NCBI GenBank assembly: GCA_023133515.1
Contig: JAGLWI010000005.1
Span: 8,434-40,433 of the forward strand
Origin: Candidatus Babeliales bacterium
GTDB taxonomy: Bacteria; Babelota; Babeliae; Babelales; UASB340
DNA length: 32,000 bases
Direction of reading: 5' to 3'
Part shown: piece by piece, positions 2,035 through 19,914 of the stretch
Layout: each line of letters begins with the position of its first letter
Numbering within the stretch: position 1 is the stretch's first letter
The notes under the pieces: model-generated
What the model saw: the letters and a program-made list of their open reading frames with translations, nothing else
Database searches by the model: none
What the model was told of the DNA's origin: nothing
Position numbers and translations under genes: made by a program

Positions 2035-2080
2035 ATCCTTCGACTACGAGCCTTCGGCTCTTCGCTCAGGACGAGCGGTA
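2035..2080. repeat. Partial/variant copy of the dispersed GC-rich palindromic element
   Basis: TCCTTCGAC...CTCAGGACGAGCG matches the right arm ATCCTTCGACAAGCTCAGGATGAGCGC. It is interrupted by the hairpin GAGCCTTCGGCTC (2048-2060, cUUCGg-type loop). It starts 4 nt after the OMP1 stop codon. Confidence 0.6.
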
Positions 2081-2143: not shown

Positions 2144-2209
2144 CCCAAAGCTTACGCTTTGGGCTAACTCAGTGTCGCATTGCCAAAAGGCAAAGCTCTT
2201 TTGAATTTT
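2144..2209. repeat. Structured repeat, left copy (B-L)
   Basis: Hairpin CCCAAAGC-TTAC-GCTTTGGG (2144-2163) and hairpin TTGCC-AAAA-GGCAA (2180-2193). Its reverse complement matches 3667-3715 nearly base for base. Confidence 0.7.
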
Positions 2210-2236
2210 ACATTAATTTTGTTAGGTATTGTTTAA

Positions 2237-2692
2237 ATGTCGAATCACACGTATTCAAGTATGTTTTATCATATTATTTGGTCAACCAAAAATCGTAAGC
2301 CGTATATTAAATGTGAATTTAAATCAAAATTATATGATTTTATTGGAAAAATAATTGTAACAAAAGAATGGATTCCGCTTGCAATCAATGGGACCTCAGA
2401 TCATATACATGTTCTTTTTCAATTATTTCCCAATTATAAAGTTTCTGATGTAGTTTGTTGTATAAAGGCAAATTCTTCTCGTTTTATGAGAGATAATTTT
2501 ATTTCAGAGTTTTTGTGGCAAGGAGGTTATTCAGTTTTTACTGTTGATAAAAAACTATTACCAAAAATAAAAAATTATATTGCAAAACAGGAACAACATC
2601 ATGCCGTATTAACATTTGAAGATGAGCTTATGCTTTTGCTAAAACGAAATAGGATTTCTTATGGTGATTATTTTAAAAGAAAATTGTTATAA
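2237..2692 (+). CDS. IS200/IS605-family Y1 (HUH) transposase, RAYT-like
   Basis: 151 aa. Motifs: YHIIWSTKNRKPYI, HUH motif DHIHVLF, WQGGYSVFTV, and the catalytic-Tyr helix NYIAKQEQHH. This is the layout of IS200 TnpA (YHIVF..DHIHML..GYY..YI..Q). No clear RBS. Confidence 0.8.
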   Translation: MSNHTYSSMFYHIIWSTKNRKPYIKCEFKSKLYDFIGKIIVTKEWIPLAINGTSDHIHVLFQLFPNYKVSDVVCCIKANSSRFMRDNFISEFLWQGGYSVFTVDKKLLPKIKNYIAKQEQHHAVLTFEDELMLLLKRNRISYGDYFKRKLL

Positions 2693-2699
2693 CACATCT

Positions 2700-2806
2700 T
2701 TGAGCACCCGTTAGGGTGCAATACTGAGTTAGCCCAAAGGACCCTCCTGAGCTACGTCGAAGGACGTAAGCTTTGGGCTATGTCAAAGGACGTAAGTTTT
2801 GGGCTT
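2700..2806. repeat. Structured repeat, middle copy (B-M)
   Basis: Hairpin GCACCC-GTTA-GGGTGC (2704-2719). Stem AGCCCAAAG (2731-2739) / CTTTGGGCT (2771-2779) encloses CCTCCTGAGCTACGTCGAAGG. The 20-nt segment AAGGACGTAAGCTTTGGGCT (2760-2779) is repeated at 2786-2805 with 1 mismatch. Confidence 0.7.
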
Positions 2807-2821
2807 GAAAAAATAAAATTA

Positions 2822-3016: not shown

Positions 3017-3265
3017 ATGTCAAAAATGGTAAGAATCAGCGAAGAAACAAGCACAAATTTAACTGCACTACAAAAATCTACAGGAAAATCCAAAGTTACA
3101 TTAGTTGAAATAGCTATCGACAAGTTATATAAAGATTTTTTTTTACTCAAAGCAAACAGAGCATATGAAAAATTAAAAAAAAATAAAAAAAAATGGAATG
3201 AAGAATTAAAAGAACGAGAAAGCTGGGAAAATACATCAAATGATGGATTAATTAATAATGAATAA
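3017..3265 (+). CDS. Ribbon-helix-helix (CopG/MazE-type) antitoxin
   Basis: 82 aa. GGAG lies 5-6 nt upstream of the ATG. The N-terminus VRISEETSTNLTALQKSTGKSKVTLVEIAIDKLY fits a strand-helix-helix pattern. The C-terminal tail is acidic and Trp-containing. The gene overlaps the toxin gene by 8 nt. Confidence 0.65.
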   Translation: MSKMVRISEETSTNLTALQKSTGKSKVTLVEIAIDKLYKDFFLLKANRAYEKLKKNKKKWNEELKERESWENTSNDGLINNE

Positions 3266-3611
3266 GCTTAAGCCTTCTCGCGGAGAAATCTGGTTTGCAA
3301 ATTTAAATCCAATAGTTGGCCACGAACAATCTAAATCAAGACCTTGCCTAATAATATCAGTTAACCAATTTAATTATGGGCCAGCAGAACTTGTTGTTAT
3401 TCTTCCTATGACAACAAAAAATAAAAATCTTCCTTGGTACGTAGAAATTAATCCTCCAGAAGGAGGAATTAAATTAAAATCATTTATAATCTGTGATCAA
3501 GTAAGAACAATTTCTAAAAAAAGATTAATTGATAAATCTCTAGGCATAATTCACCAAAAAACTTTATACCAAATTGAAAAACGATTAGAAATATTACTAG
3601 GATTAAATTAA
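3258..3611 (+). CDS. mazF: MazF/PemK(Kid)-family endoribonuclease toxin
   Basis: 117 aa. RGEIWFANLNPIVGHEQSKSRPCLIIS closely parallels Kid/PemK RGEIWLVSLDPTAGHEQQGTRPVLIV. ICDQVRTISKKRL parallels RCDQPRTID. Confidence 0.85.
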   Translation: MNKLKPSRGEIWFANLNPIVGHEQSKSRPCLIISVNQFNYGPAELVVILPMTTKNKNLPWYVEINPPEGGIKLKSFIICDQVRTISKKRLIDKSLGIIHQKTLYQIEKRLEILLGLN

Positions 3612-3632
3612 TTTAGCTCAAATATGTGTGAT

Positions 3633-3660
3633 TTGACATATAAATAATACTTAATAAAAT
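3633..3660 (+). promoter_or_regulatory. Candidate sigma70-type promoter for OMP paralog 2
   Basis: TTGACA (3633-3638), 16-nt spacer, TAAAAT (3655-3660). The predicted start falls at the first bases of repeat 3667-3773. Confidence 0.4.
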
Positions 3661-3666
3661 TAATAT

Positions 3667-3773
3667 AAAATTCAAAAGAGCTTTGCCTTTTTGCAATGCA
3701 ACACTTAGTTAGCCCAATGGACCCTCCTGAGCCCTGAGCTTGTCGAAGGGTCGAAGGACGTTAGCTTTGGGCC
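3667..3773. repeat. Structured repeat, right copy (B-R), inverted relative to 2144-2209
   Basis: AAAATTCAAAAGAGCTTTGCCTTTTTGCAATGCAACACTTAGTTAGCCC matches the reverse complement of 2161-2209 with a few mismatches. The GCCCAA..TTGGGC stem carries a ~45-nt loop insert with duplicated CCTGAGC and TCGAAGG cores. The repeat ends 4 nt before the OMP2 RBS. Confidence 0.75.
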
Positions 3774-3789
3774 ATTTGGAGCAAAATTT

Positions 3790-5262
3790 ATGAAAAAATT
3801 TTTTAAAGTTATTTTTATTTTAATTATCAGTATAAATACAGCCTTTGCAACACACACAACAGAAAAAACATTCTTTTTGCCAAGATCTCATGGTGTAAAT
3901 TTACCAATGGAATATACAGCATGGAATGAATTTTTATCTCAAAACACAGAGGAACAATTTGGTACCAATTTTCAAGTAGTTCCATTTTATCAAGAATCCT
4001 TAAACGGAACTGATCTTGGAAAATATTTTGGTGTTAAAAACAAAATATCTTTCAATCTTCATTCTGGACAAGAAGAAGATGTACGTGGCACATACATAAT
4101 TCACGATGCAACAACAGCCGCAGGAAATGTAAATCTTGCAACAATAGAAATATATCCTCATCAAAAAGCAACTGGAATTCGTTTTGATTACTTTCAAAAT
4201 TTAGAAAGAGTAATGGAAAATCTTTATCTAAAAGTAGCAATACCTATAATTTTTTTAAAAAATACTATGAACTTGAAAATCAAAGAAGGAACCGCAAAAG
4301 ATACTTTTCTTGATTATTTCAAAGGCAAAATAGACATCGACTTTGATAGCGCTGGAATAATAAGTGGTCAAGCTCACAACAGCGCTCAAGAATCACTTAC
4401 ACATGCAAAAATTCCACATGATTACGATTACACTGCTGTAGATGTTGCTGATATTGATATCATATTTGGATATAATGTTTTAAATAACAATCGATATAAG
4501 GCATCAATAAATTTAGGATTCTCTTTCCCAACAGGTGAAGAACCAAGTGGTTTTTATGTTTTCGAATCAATAGTTGGTGGTGGAAACCATTGGTCATTAA
4601 ATGCAGGAATTAATTCCAATGCAACCATGTGGAAACATAAATCCAAAAACCTAAAGTTAAACTTTGCCTTAAATTACAAATATCTTTTTCAAAGCACAGA
4701 AAAAAGAACTCTCAAATTAAAAGGGCTACCATACAGTCAATATTATTTAATAGGAAAAATAGGAAGCATTCGAAATCAAACAAAATTCATACCTGCCGCA
4801 AATATCCTTACAAGAAATATTAATGTTACACCAGGAAGCCAAATTGATACCATTTTGGGCTTTTCTTATAATCATTCAGGCCTTATTATTGATGTTGGAT
4901 ACAATTTTTTCTGGAAAAATAAAGAATCCGTATCTTCAAAAGACCACTGGTTTGACGGAAAATATGGAATTTTACATCCAGAACAAATATTGGAAGGAAA
5001 CAAGTCTTTTGAACTAAGCGATAATCCTGTTGCGGCAGGTGTAGATGGTGGAGCAGAAAAATTGATTTATGAGCAAGATTTGGATATTCAAGCAGCCTCA
5101 ACTCCGTCTTTAGTAACTCATAAAATCTATGGTAGTTTAGGGTACCTATGTTTAAAGTTAAAACGTCCTATAATGCTTGGATTTGGATGTAGTTATGAAT
5201 TTGCCGAAAAATATGCCTTAGAAAACTGGCAAATTTGGACAAAAATGGGGATAACTTTTTAA
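3790..5262 (+). CDS. Putative outer-membrane beta-barrel protein, paralog 2
   Basis: GGAG lies 8 nt upstream of the ATG. Signal peptide MKKFFKVIFILIISINTAFA. C-terminus ...WTKMGITF. Blocks shared with paralog 1: KTFFLPR.HGVN..MEYT.WNE, RGTYIIHD, STEKRT, IPAAN.LTR, THKIYG. Confidence 0.6.
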   Translation: MKKFFKVIFILIISINTAFATHTTEKTFFLPRSHGVNLPMEYTAWNEFLSQNTEEQFGTNFQVVPFYQESLNGTDLGKYFGVKNKISFNLHSGQEEDVRGTYIIHDATTAAGNVNLATIEIYPHQKATGIRFDYFQNLERVMENLYLKVAIPIIFLKNTMNLKIKEGTAKDTFLDYFKGKIDIDFDSAGIISGQAHNSAQESLTHAKIPHDYDYTAVDVADIDIIFGYNVLNNNRYKASINLGFSFPTGEEPSGFYVFESIVGGGNHWSLNAGINSNATMWKHKSKNLKLNFALNYKYLFQSTEKRTLKLKGLPYSQYYLIGKIGSIRNQTKFIPAANILTRNINVTPGSQIDTILGFSYNHSGLIIDVGYNFFWKNKESVSSKDHWFDGKYGILHPEQILEGNKSFELSDNPVAAGVDGGAEKLIYEQDLDIQAASTPSLVTHKIYGSLGYLCLKLKRPIMLGFGCSYEFAEKYALENWQIWTKMGITF

Positions 5263-5293: not shown

Positions 5294-5391
5294 AGAACTT
5301 ATACGAAAATTCAAATAAATTTGCAATGCGCTCATCCTGAGCTTGTCGAAGGATGAAGCGCTGTATCCTTCGACAAGCTCAGGATGAGCGC
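5294..5391. repeat. Palindromic element copy A1 (REPIN/MITE-like)
   Basis: Perfect 27-nt inverted repeat: GCGCTCATCCTGAGCTTGTCGAAGGAT (5328-5354) and ATCCTTCGACAAGCTCAGGATGAGCGC (5365-5391), separated by a 10-nt spacer. The AT-rich left extension AGAACTTATACGAAAATTCAAATAAATTTGCAAT is shared with copies at 7274 and 19802. Confidence 0.85.
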
Positions 5392-7273: not shown

Positions 7274-7387
7274 AAAACTTATACGAAAATTAAAACAAAT
7301 TTGCAATGGCGCTCATTCTAGTGCTGAGTATTATCGAAGTATCGAAGAATGAAGCGCTGTATCCTTCGACAAGCTCAGGATGAGCGC
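7274..7387. repeat. Palindromic element copy A2
   Basis: The right arm ATCCTTCGACAAGCTCAGGATGAGCGC is intact (7361-7387). The left arm is expanded: GCGCTCATTCTAGTGCTGAGTATTATCGAAGTATCGAAGAATGAAGCGC. The core differs at 1 position from copy 19802-19914. It starts 9 nt after the stop codon of ORF 5544..7265. Confidence 0.85.
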
Positions 7388-11724: not shown

Positions 11725-13224
11725 TTATTTAAATAAATCTAAATTTTCCTGTAACATCTTTATTAAAAAACTTATCCTTTCCAAGGATTTTTCTTTACCT
11801 AAAATAGTCATCAATTCAAAAACTCCTGGGCTCATAATTTTCCCAGTAAGCGCCAATCTTAAAGGTTGAGCCAATGCAACCAATTTCATATCAACTTCTT
11901 TACAAACATCTTTTGCAATCTTATTTAATTCACTCGTGGTGAGTGCGCCGTAGGCGTGTCGATCATCCTGAGCCTGTCGAAGGATCGAACCATCAAATTT
12001 TTTAAGAGAAGAAATATTATTTTCATAAGATTGCATCAAACCTATACTTTTCTTTGATAACCATTTTTTTATCAAATTTAAATCCAAAACCTTTGGCGAC
12101 TTTGCAAAAGAAATTATATCTTGAACCATATTTAAAATTCTTATCGCTCTTGCTCCATATTGAGTAAAAAGTTCTTCTAACTGTTCTTTTTCCCAAAACT
12201 TTATCAACTCTTCTTTATAATTATTCTCAATATTTTCTACGGCCTTTATAAATCCTTCAAAGTCTAATTTTCTAATATAAACCCCATTCAGCCATTCAAG
12301 TTTTTTAATGTCAAAGATTGCACCCTTTTTACCAACATTATCCAAAGAAAAATGTTTTATCATTTCATCTTTTGTAAAAATCTCTTGATCACCATGAGAC
12401 CAACCAAGACGTACTAAATAATTAAAAAGAGCATCAGGCAAAAATCCTTGTACTCTATATTCATCAACACTCACTGCCGCATCACGCTTACTCAATCTAT
12501 GTCCAGATGGACCAAGAATTAAAGGCAGATGAGCAAAAACTGGTAATTTTTCATTCAATGCTTTATAAATAAAAATCTGTTTCGGTGTATTAGAAATATG
12601 ATCCTCTCCACGTATAACATGAGAGATTTTCATAAAAATATCATCTAATACAACAACAAAATTGTATGTCGGAATACCATCTTGTCTTAAAATTATAAAA
12701 TCATTTATCTGATCTATATCAACACTAATTTTTCCACGTATTACATCTTCAAACTCAATTCTTTTTTGATCTCTCGGAACACGAAATCTTATAGCATAAG
12801 GTTTTTGCAAATCCTGCTCAGAATATTTTTTATCTTTACAATTACACTGCTCTTGCTCAACATAAAATTCTTCAACTTTTTTTGGCTCAGCAGCAACTGC
12901 AGATGGCTGGCAAAAACACGGATAAGCTAATCCTTTTTCTAAAAAATCTTTTGCAATTTTTTTGTGCTCTTCAATGCGAGATAATTGATACAATACTGAT
13001 TCATCTGATAATAATCCCAACCACTTTAATGATTTAAGCTGAAATTCAACATATTCCTTTTTAGATCTTACCTGATCAGTGTCCTCAATACGTACCAAAT
13101 ATTTTCCATTATTATGTCTTGCAAACAACCAATTAAAAATAGCTACACGCACACTTCCAACATGCAAATGACCTGTTGGAGATGGAGCAAAACGAACTCT
13201 TACTTCATTTTTAAAATCTGCCAT
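11725..13224 (-). CDS. gltX: Glutamyl-tRNA synthetase
   Basis: 499 aa. RFAPSPTGHLHVGSVR (HIGH motif), RLSKRD (KMSKS-type), and the C-terminal LAQPLRLALTG. The stop lies 14 nt upstream of the fabD start. Confidence 0.9.
   Translation of the reverse strand: MADFKNEVRVRFAPSPTGHLHVGSVRVAIFNWLFARHNNGKYLVRIEDTDQVRSKKEYVEFQLKSLKWLGLLSDESVLYQLSRIEEHKKIAKDFLEKGLAYPCFCQPSAVAAEPKKVEEFYVEQEQCNCKDKKYSEQDLQKPYAIRFRVPRDQKRIEFEDVIRGKISVDIDQINDFIILRQDGIPTYNFVVVLDDIFMKISHVIRGEDHISNTPKQIFIYKALNEKLPVFAHLPLILGPSGHRLSKRDAAVSVDEYRVQGFLPDALFNYLVRLGWSHGDQEIFTKDEMIKHFSLDNVGKKGAIFDIKKLEWLNGVYIRKLDFEGFIKAVENIENNYKEELIKFWEKEQLEELFTQYGARAIRILNMVQDIISFAKSPKVLDLNLIKKWLSKKSIGLMQSYENNISSLKKFDGSILRQAQDDRHAYGALTTSELNKIAKDVCKEVDMKLVALAQPLRLALTGKIMSPGVFELMTILGKEKSLERISFLIKMLQENLDLFK
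11931..11992. repeat. Palindromic-element arm embedded in frame within gltX
   Basis: On the minus strand, GATCCTTCGACAGGCTCAGGATGATCGAC matches the arm ATCCTTCGACAAGCTCAGGATGAGCGC at about 24/27 positions. It encodes SILRQAQDDRHAYGALT. It forms a GC-rich island inside an AT-rich gene. Confidence 0.75.
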
Positions 13225-17417: not shown

Positions 17418-17517
17418 CACGCTCATCCTAAACTTGTCGAAGAATACAGCGCTGCATCCTTCGACAAGCTCAGGATGAGCGCATCTTTTTACATTTTAGC
17501 GCATCTTTTTACATTTT
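17418..17517. repeat. Palindromic element copy A3 plus a 20-nt tandem duplication at its right edge
   Basis: CACGCTCATCCTAAACTTGTCGAAGAAT...ATCCTTCGACAAGCTCAGGATGAGCGC (to 17482). AGCGCATCTTTTTACATTTT at 17478-17497 is repeated exactly at 17498-17517. Confidence 0.8.
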
Positions 17518-19801: not shown

Positions 19802-19914
19802 AGAACTTATACGAAAATTCAAATAAATTTGCAATGCGCTCATTCTAGTGCTGAGTATTATCGAAGTATCGAAGAATGAAACGCTGTATCCTTCGACAAG
19901 CTCAGGATGAGCGC
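19802..19914. repeat. Palindromic element copy A4
   Basis: Same left extension and expanded-arm variant as 7274-7387, with 1 mismatch in the ~79-nt core. It ends in ATCCTTCGACAAGCTCAGGATGAGCGC. Confidence 0.85.

Follow-up and report, generated by a model that had tools for sequence, protein, structure and literature searches.

A predicted Y1 transposase gene between inverted two-hairpin modules in a Candidatus Babeliales genome

A stretch of 32,000 nucleotides from a Candidatus Babeliales genome (assembly GCA_023133515.1, contig JAGLWI010000005.1, positions 8,434 to 40,433), referred to here as the window and numbered from its first letter, contains a cassette of about 660 bp (2144-2806) in which a gene for a predicted HUH/Y1 transposase stands between inverted two-hairpin modules. 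The layout is REPtron-like; in REPtrons, genes for REP-associated tyrosine transposases (RAYTs, or TnpA-REP) are reportedly flanked by inverted repetitive extragenic palindromes (REPs) (Nunvar 2010; Ton-Hoang 2012; Messing 2012). The explanation favored here, to which a probability of about 0.58 is attached, is that the cassette is a low-copy, REPtron-like element carrying a transposase of TnpAY1 subclass 1.2, that it is neither a canonical RAYT element nor a classical IS200 insertion sequence (IS), and that the palindromes dispersed through the window form a separate family. An initial annotation had described a single-copy gene between inverted REP-like hairpins, and this agrees with the foot-plus-hairpin ends reported below and with the failure to find a second Y1 gene in 47.9 kb of the contig (the window and adjoining sequence, which is the scope of the copy counts given here). 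Its identification of the enzyme as a RAYT that spreads the palindromes was not borne out.

The product of the transposase open reading frame (ORF; Table 1) matched PF01797 (Y1_Tnp) with E=1.8e-25, and all four motifs from which an IS200 TnpA layout had been recognized (YHIIWSTKNR, DHIHVLF, WQGGYSVFTV and NYIAKQEQHH) were present. The HUH motif DHIH occupies residues 55-58, the W motif is WQ, and the Y motif is YIAKQEQHH (Y114-x3-Q118-x2-H121-H122). Residues H56, H58, W94, Q95, Y114, Q118, H121 and H122 were invariant across 28 aligned homologs, and the C-terminal tail was alignable across the same set, with F127, E130 and L135 at least 90% conserved. Judged by its sequence, the ORF encodes an intact HUH/Y1 transposase in which every catalytic residue is kept. 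A profile search of the PDB matched TnpA proteins of the IS200/IS605 group only (ISDra2, ISHp608, Sulfolobus and related; E 1e-13 to 1e-18), those of ISDra2 and ISHp608 ranking first (E ~1e-17 to 1e-18); E. coli TnpA-REP was not among the matches at E<=0.01. The protein passed the NCBIfam model transpos_IS200 (78.2 bits, cut-off 55) and failed the RAYT model REP_Tyr_transpos (18.8 bits, cut-off 80). RAYTs constitute TnpAY1 class 2 in the classification of Quentin, Siguier, Chandler and Fichant (2018, PMC6006769), all of whose RAYT subclasses have Y-x3-NP in common, whereas the window protein has Y-x3-Q-x2-HH. RAYT membership, as first assigned, is not supported.

By its HuH, W and Y motifs and its length, the protein is placed in TnpAY1 subclass 1.2, whose published signature is DH[IV]H, WQ and YIKNQKEHH with a median length of 148 aa and a conserved C-terminal domain of ~30 aa (PMC6006769). 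The subclass is described there as low-copy (1.7 copies per genome, with 36% identity between copies), not IS-like, present in <4% of species, outside Bertels' RAYT groups, without typical terminal hairpins, and 'REP: no' (PMC6006769). The window protein resembles it in DHIH, WQ, YIAKQEQHH, a length of ~150 aa, a C-terminal tail of ~30 aa and the lack of tnpB; its copy number appears low, with one intact and one truncated copy in 47.9 kb. It differs from the published description in its host, a member of the Dependentiae, and in that the gene and most of its relatives are tightly flanked by inverted hairpin modules with a TAG foot. These modules contradict the description of subclass 1.2 as having no REPs, not the membership of the protein, and they are a new observation relative to the literature searched.

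Each cassette end consists of a small hairpin, a spacer of 8-13 nt, a [G/T]TAG foot and a long GC-closed hairpin, in this order, and the two modules are inverted relative to each other; because of this inversion each strand would offer one site in which a foot precedes a hairpin, as in REPtrons. An exact inverted repeat of 13 nt had been noted at the ends; it is real and extends to 17 nt (CTTTGGGCTAACTCAGT, 2157-2173 on the + strand and 2723-2739 on the - strand). A third copy, at 3703-3719 (-), differs at 2 positions, and shuffled sequence gave 0.04 matches at up to 3 mismatches. Folded as single-stranded DNA (ssDNA), the left end (2138-2200) reached -14.4 kcal/mol (z -4.0) and formed the hairpins H1 and hp2, while the right end (2696-2808) reached -24.3 kcal/mol (z -5.15, 0/200 shuffles as good) and formed hp2' and a long composite hairpin. 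The hairpins beside each repeat copy thus folded as originally described, and so did the second small hairpin, which keeps its position and changes its sequence (hp2 against hp2') here and in the relatives likewise. Alignment of the two ends showed that the H1 stem is split at the right end by a 25-nt insert (2740-2764, GACCC-TCC-TGAGCTACGTCGAA-GGA), which carries a pan-bacterial loop module. The palindrome core CCTGAGC..GTCGAAGG is found in this hairpin and not in the left end. The statement that the right hairpin carries the core of the dispersed palindromes accordingly stands for the right end, where the core looks like an insertion, with the halves spaced by 3 nt (TAC) and not by 2 nt (TT) as in the dispersed arms; it does not extend to the left end.

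The same architecture was found in relatives of the gene (loci are given L numbers). The four closest, at 68% (L007), 61% (L009), 57% (L006) and 54% (L012) protein identity, lie in unrelated genomic contexts, and 4/4 had the same ends, inverted on the two sides and reading from the outside inward as long hairpin, CTA[AC] on the left top strand (that is, [G/T]TAG followed by the hairpin on the opposite strand), conserved spacer and small hairpin. The foot and spacer of the window clade, CTA[AC]-N3-A..-YYGC[AC], were conserved in 13 ends, with GTAG as the foot in L006, L009 and L012. The small hairpin kept its position and varied in sequence from locus to locus, and the stems of the long hairpin differed by compensatory changes, for example CCCAAAGC/GCTTTGGG in the window versus CCCTG-GGC/GCC-CAGGG in L006. 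In L009 a complete element is directly followed by a gene-less mini-element consisting of a left and a right end, and L012 contains extra modules and a perfect inverted repeat of 47 nt.

A scan of metagenomes yielded at least 596 relatives, from which 80 loci were kept. Inverted repeats were identified by local alignment of the upstream flank with the reverse complement of the downstream flank at a threshold of z>=9, and were found in 61/74 testable loci (57/68 metagenomic). They measured ~21-190 nt, mostly 45-130; upstream they began ~100-130 nt ahead of the start codon, and downstream 0-10 nt past the stop codon. A perfect hairpin of at least 7 bp starting with CC was present in 79/116 arms, mostly with GNRA-like tetraloops. 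Before this hairpin stood a four-base foot with A at position 3 in 72/79 and G at position 4 in 77/79 (GTAG 25, TTAG 17, GCAG 12, ATAG 10). A small hairpin lay 8-12 nt outside the foot, so the unit in the family is the same two-hairpin module as in the window. In a finished Bernardetia replicon two repeat units were present on each side of the gene and none elsewhere in 40 kb. Over the 61 loci with inverted repeats, 13-mers derived from the ends occurred outside the cassette in 21, and L162 and L179 contained arrays. The long hairpin of L133, L142, L158, L169 and other metagenome loci is tipped either by a GNRA-like tetraloop or by a 13-nt sequence such as GGAGCGCAGCGGA with an internal GCGNAGC mini-hairpin, an alternation similar to that of GTAA and TGAGCTACGTCGAA in the window.

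The identical protein was found in 5 listed places, in independent assemblies and always between the same neighbors, among them contig DAOVLQ010000003.1 (153 kb) of the Candidatus Babeliales metagenome-assembled genome (MAG) GCA_030631185.1; this is a single genomic context. The end repeat CTTTGGGCTAAC... and the end-type foot were confined to three element ends within the 47.9 kb. Near-identical copies of the element were seen neither there nor among the contexts of the identical protein, with the limit that MAG assemblies can lose repeats, and comparison of 61 cassettes gave only 1 pair at >=80% identity, which speaks against recent mobility. No tnpB partner or other conserved partner gene was found beside the Y1 cassettes, whose neighbors are diverse between loci. 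A search of 72,556 plasmid records gave 23 matching records; only 2, both >600 kb, align through the C-terminal tail, which marks subclass 1.2, and 0/2 phage matches do so. Within the reading given a probability of about 0.58, the element is thus low-copy and rarely mobile, with one intact and one decayed inverted copy in the window.

These counts bear on the alternative that the cassette is an ordinary active IS of the IS200 group, the whole unit moving by peel-and-paste and its other copies being hidden by the fragmentary MAG. Elements of the IS200/IS605 group (IS608, ISDra2, IS200) resemble the cassette in a Y1 transposase of ~150 aa with Y-x3-Q, in hairpins at both ends and in the name of the NCBI model. 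The protein passes that IS200/IS605 equivalog model, its nearest structures are the TnpA proteins of IS608 and ISDra2, the relatives occupy unrelated contexts, and the mini-element of L009 resembles IS-derived miniature inverted-repeat transposable elements. A truncated second copy in the window, copy2 (Table 1), includes the 5' untranslated region (UTR) and the start of the gene, which shows that the whole unit and not the hairpins alone was duplicated. However, the subterminal hairpins at the two ends of classical IS200/IS605 elements do not form an inverted repeat and act on one and the same strand, whereas the ends in the window are inverted repeats (17 nt exact and the hairpin stems). Classical elements insert 3' of a constant tetra- or pentanucleotide, and the target is not duplicated. 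Classical elements are also multi-copy, with near-identical copies, and often carry tnpB (PMC6006769), neither of which was seen in the searches described above. The cassette is an internal part of a 153-kb contig, five assemblies agree on its surroundings, the 61 cassettes included no near-identical copies, the subclass itself is reported as low-copy with divergent copies, and it is nearly absent from plasmids and phages. An active IS is on this evidence quite unlikely.

A further alternative is that a formerly mobile element is now a fixed, non-functional passenger, its hairpins being leftovers or serving the neighboring genes as terminators or regulatory sites. Copy2, which together with the MazF toxin-antitoxin pair and the tandem duplicate at the right end (Table 1) had escaped the initial annotation, is relevant here. 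The segment 2159-2255, which covers the left end, the 5'UTR and the initial 19 nt of the coding sequence, is repeated in inverted orientation at 3621-3717 (97 nt, 90% identity), and the copy continues through a long hairpin in which one core is nested in another (CCTGAGC, then CCTGAGCTTGTCGAAGG, then GTCGAAGG); its fold is degenerate (z -0.6). Decay of this copy would fit a relic, as would the lack in the left hairpin of the insert seen in the right end and copy2, the tandem duplication of the right end, a pseudogenised relative in L041, and the terminator-like score of hp2. The ORF is nevertheless intact with every catalytic residue, the 17-nt core of the inverted repeat is still exact, and matched pairs of end modules are kept across relatives at only 32-68% identity to the window protein, which implies continued selection on recognition by the enzyme. 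An inert relic is therefore considered unlikely.

The palindromes that the initial annotation had regarded as the substrate of the enzyme have 27-nt arms (GCGCTCATCCTGAGCTTGTCGAAGGAT) at 5328-5391, 7361-7387, 17456-17482 and 19888-19914, with variants at 11959-11985 and 2037-2070. Palindrome or core sites numbered 7 outside the cassette in 47.9 kb, and none of the arms had a TAG foot. The core was scanned for in one genome per species with the pattern TCCTGAGCT-N(1-2)-GTCGAAGGA, which gave at least 120 loci. Among the matches listed were Sphingomonadales, Dehalococcoidia, Bacteroidota, Verrucomicrobiota, Acidobacteriota, Planctomycetota, Patescibacteria, Dependentiae and others. In these loci (L013-L132) and in the window the core forms a hairpin whose outer stems vary and whose center, TCC-TGAGCTTGTCGAA-GGA, is conserved; in the listed loci an inverted partner is often present. 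No Rfam family was matched at the gathering threshold anywhere in the window, the core included; an exact-sequence literature search for the core returned no paper, and one on Dependentiae with transposase and palindromic repeats returned nothing relevant.

The alternative in which the protein is a domesticated, RAYT-type transposase and the palindromes are its cognate repeats, spread by it through the genome, draws on their proximity. The core occurs in the right-end hairpin and copy2, and another core element precedes the left end by 66 nt; palindromes are common in this region; and the closest relative, L007, has core elements inside its left-end hairpin, between the gene and the right end, and downstream. 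The core is missing, though, from the left end of the window cassette, from the end hairpins of L006, L009 and L012, from the right-end hairpin of L007 and from the ends of more distant Y1 relatives. Strict core matches numbered 0 in 300 kb around the 80 Y1 relatives, compared with 31 in the 828 kb of the core-positive loci (seed masked), and conversely only 1/120 core-bearing loci had a Y1 gene among the matches listed. The core is spread over many phyla while subclass 1.2 occurs in few species (PMC6006769), the arms are footless, the core flanks GIY-YIG genes in 6/6 loci, and the protein fails both the RAYT signature and the RAYT model. With a pan-bacterial core, and an end repeat limited to three ends in 47.9 kb, dispersal of the palindromes by this enzyme is very unlikely.

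The core at the ends is most simply read as a module that inserted repeatedly at exposed hairpin tips, in which case it would not be an ancestral part of the recognition site of the Y1 enzyme. This is suggested by a right-end hairpin of L007 that has the same stem (ATGTCC/GGACAT versus CCTCC/GGACG in the window) with GCA replacing the 14-nt loop TGAGCTACGTCGAA, by the whole core in the left end of L007, and by the nested core of copy2. The 27-nt-arm palindromes are probably a separate, pan-bacterial hairpin family whose likely partner elsewhere is a small GIY-YIG nuclease.

Small PF01541 GIY-YIG genes were flanked by the core in 6/6 loci examined, all in other genomes (Table 1); the core stands on both sides of the gene in L047, L082, L073, L215 and L221, and L231 has an upstream array only. 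L215, L221 and L231 are three further contexts reached through homologs of the GIY-YIG protein. At L047 the core forms a perfect inverted repeat of 31 nt. No GIY-YIG gene was found in 47.9 kb of the window contig, and the core hairpins had no conserved neighbors apart from GIY-YIG. The proteins concerned are single-domain and 72-89% identical across many metagenomes, and two of the genes are located between hsdM and hsdS of type I restriction systems. Locus L106 (6560-7250) has a GIY-YIG gene from another subfamily between inverted copies of another hairpin repeat, GCCCCGTGCTTGACACGGGGC, which indicates that several GIY-YIG/repeat pairings may exist. A comparable repeat-gene-repeat layout is known for the Ssn GIY-YIG ssDNA nucleases, whose NTS/SRM hairpin repeats likewise occur scattered through the genome (Chenal et al. 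2025, PMC11893778). The six core loci resemble it in a small single-domain GIY-YIG gene between inverted hairpin repeats; the published SRM pattern HGTCWY..RNCYNB, in contrast, matched 0/130 core instances and nothing in the window. The core is consequently treated as resembling the Ssn system and not as belonging to it, and its identification as SRM/NTS was rejected. Also rejected were CGTC-tagged REPs, a family with stems of 8-9 bp and loops of 4-5 nt compared with a 13-nt loop here, and a ribozyme or tRNA-like element, as there was no Rfam match in the window and the CUGANGA...GAAA hammerhead core was absent by eye.

Several other features of the core were observed. Its palindrome sites in the window span 5328-5391, 7309-7387, 17420-17482 and 19836-19914. 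One copy (11930-11990) lies in frame inside a glutamyl-tRNA synthetase (GluRS) gene (11725-13224, -) and encodes ...SILRQAQDDRHAYGAL...; the best solved GluRS homolog, 8i9i, is gapped at this stretch, which suggests a repeat insertion like that of the Rickettsia palindromic elements. Partial tandem or nested duplications of the core (3726-3757, 2756-2807, L017, L022, L043, L088) break just after CCTGAGC or just before GTCGAAGG, and these recurrent breakpoints hint at a cut or slippage point in the loop. Variable hairpin inserts separate the core halves at 2037-2070 and in three cases in L007. The palindromes at 5294-5391, 7274-7387 and 19802-19914 have in common an additional AT-rich left flank of ~35 nt, AGAACTTATACGAAAATTCAAATAAATTTGCAAT, and two degenerate copies (7309-7387, 19836-19914) share 99% identity; the copied unit is on this evidence a composite of ~100 nt and not the bare palindrome.

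Compared with REPtrons, the cassette shares an apparently single- or low-copy Y1/HUH gene within inverted repeats, a 5' foot of the GT[AG]G type followed by a hairpin, and, in some relatives, gene-less repeat copies nearby. It differs in that the protein lacks Y-x3-NP and fails REP_Tyr_transpos, the foot is TTAG (T for G at position 1), the module has a second small hairpin, and there is no high-copy dispersal of the end repeat, which within only 47.9 kb is a weak test. As regards the single-copy, vertically inherited and plasmid-free occurrence of RAYTs, the window protein has one context and is nearly absent from plasmids and phages, but its relatives are non-syntenic. TIRYTs (in TIRtrons) are likewise Y1 genes within inverted repeats, in their case long terminal ones, some partly self-complementary, which form moderately abundant repeat families in some genomes (Di Nocera et al. 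2013, PMC3733652). They belong mostly to subclass 2.1, with ~240 aa, C-terminal helix-turn-helix domains and a GGGGWSAS repeat motif (PMC3733652, PMC6006769), whereas the window protein has 151 aa, is of class 1 and is associated with TAG-footed hairpin repeats.

Against the explanation favored here, that of a low-copy subclass 1.2 cassette with an unrelated palindrome family beside it, several points have to be set. The foot in the window clade is TTAG and not GTAG and its hairpin faces outward, while the modules of most relatives face inward. In locus L192 (2680-3780) each flank of the Y1 gene contains the module in both orientations, which explains the outermost hairpin of the window clade and reconciles the two layouts. 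Copy counts for the gene, the end modules and the GIY-YIG gene cover only ~48 kb of the source genome, and MAG assemblies often lose multi-copy elements. The assignment to subclass 1.2 was made by published motif signatures and not with the hidden Markov models of Quentin et al. Finally, the core is concentrated at or beside the ends both in the window (2037-2070, 2746-2763, 3726-3749) and in L007, which may point to a functional connection and not to insertions by chance; this local enrichment in two sister lineages gives a lineage-specific link of the Y1 element and the core a small probability. As a separate observation, the end modules of L192 are inverted, REPIN-like doublets on both sides while the syntenic L150 has single modules, which shows that modules were gained or lost at a single locus.

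If it works like IS608 TnpA and E. coli TnpA-REP, the Y1 enzyme would bind the folded long hairpin together with its 5' TAG foot on ssDNA, for example at replication forks. Nicking and rejoining nearby would proceed through Tyr114, with a metal held by His56 and His58, and could occasionally move or copy the cassette or gene-less pairs of modules. We infer catalysis, strand specificity and mobility of the cassette. In the window, the gene body of copy2 may have been replaced by the MazF toxin-antitoxin pair or lost next to it, and the long hairpins of the right end and copy2 may each have received the palindrome loop module by insertion.

Table 1. Positions of the cassette, its truncated copy, the toxin-antitoxin pair and the core-flanked GIY-YIG loci
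Feature	Position	Strand	Details
Left-end long hairpin H1, CCCAAAGC-TTAC-GCTTTGGG, outermost in left module	2144-2163		Fold z -4.0; position kept in L006, L007, L009, L012, L192
Left foot and spacer, CTAACTCAGTGTCGCA	2164-2179		Bottom strand reads ...TTAG then H1; exact inverted partner 2720-2739
Left-end small hairpin hp2, GC-A-TTGCC-AAAA-GGCAA-A-GC	2177-2196		Folds; relatives keep position and change sequence
Predicted Y1/HUH transposase gene	2237-2692	+	151 aa; H56/H58, W94-Q95, Y114-x3-Q118-x2-H121-H122, conserved C-terminal tail
Right-end small hairpin hp2', GCACCC-GTTA-GGGTGC	2704-2719		Folds; occupies the place of hp2 with other sequence
Right-end spacer and TTAG foot, AATACTGAGTTAG	2720-2732		Exact inverted copy of left foot and spacer
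Right-end long hairpin H1'	2733-2777		H1 stem split by 25-nt insert 2740-2764; fold z -5.15
Second tandem copy (85%) of 2756-2781 (3' half of H1'); its first bases are exactly GTCGAAGG	2782-2807		Repeat family D11
Toxin-antitoxin pair: 82-aa ORF (3017-3265) and MazF/PemK toxin (3258-3611)	3017-3611	+	PF02452 E=1.4e-27; arrangement constant in all assemblies
Truncated copy2: left-end module, 5'UTR, first 19 nt of gene	3621-3775	-	Inverted repeat I1; extends through long hairpin to 3775
Core-flanked GIY-YIG loci (other genomes)	L047 4100-4485; L082 790-1350; L073 3984-4655; L215 920-1310; L221 900-1400; L231 750-1000

The toxin-antitoxin pair sits between the intact cassette and copy2 and so has the left end on one side and the inverted truncated copy of that end on the other. 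A toxin-antitoxin neighbor was also seen in L041 (Acidobacteriota), where a ParE toxin (3731-4200) lies beside the pseudogenised Y1 gene. In the window the whole region is bracketed by paralogous genes of ~500 aa (439-2031 and 3790-5262), whose 5' parts are 85% identical over 74 nt and for which Pfam gave no match. A strong terminator (2104-2126) closes the first of these, leaving 18 nt to the left end of the cassette. A promoter scan gave 10 sites versus 8.3 expected. The description of the genome as AT-rich and host-dependent held: it is a Babeliales MAG, and the ~30% GC of the window and its gene for a TLC ATP/ADP transporter fit a host-dependent lifestyle.

The model enzymes for the spread of REP-type hairpin repeats, the RAYTs, all come, to our knowledge, from one class of Y1 proteins. 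A broader proposal, tentative and rather doubtful, is that subclass 1.2 as a whole is a second repeat-associated Y1 lineage, independent of the RAYTs, with a two-hairpin, NTAG-footed module that can face either way; in Babeliales the hairpin tips would have captured a GIY-YIG-associated loop module, so that two unrelated systems of ssDNA nuclease and hairpin might interact there, for example by one inserting into or cleaving the ends of the other. The present results also correct an error that proximity invites, in that the abundant palindromes near the Y1 gene probably belong to a different, multi-phylum family, whose best candidate partner is a small GIY-YIG nuclease. If the association holds for subclass 1.2, the design of a gene between its own hairpins either arose twice or predates the split of IS200 and RAYTs, and a 151-aa enzyme together with a defined ~45-nt module would form a very compact system in which to study recognition and cleavage.

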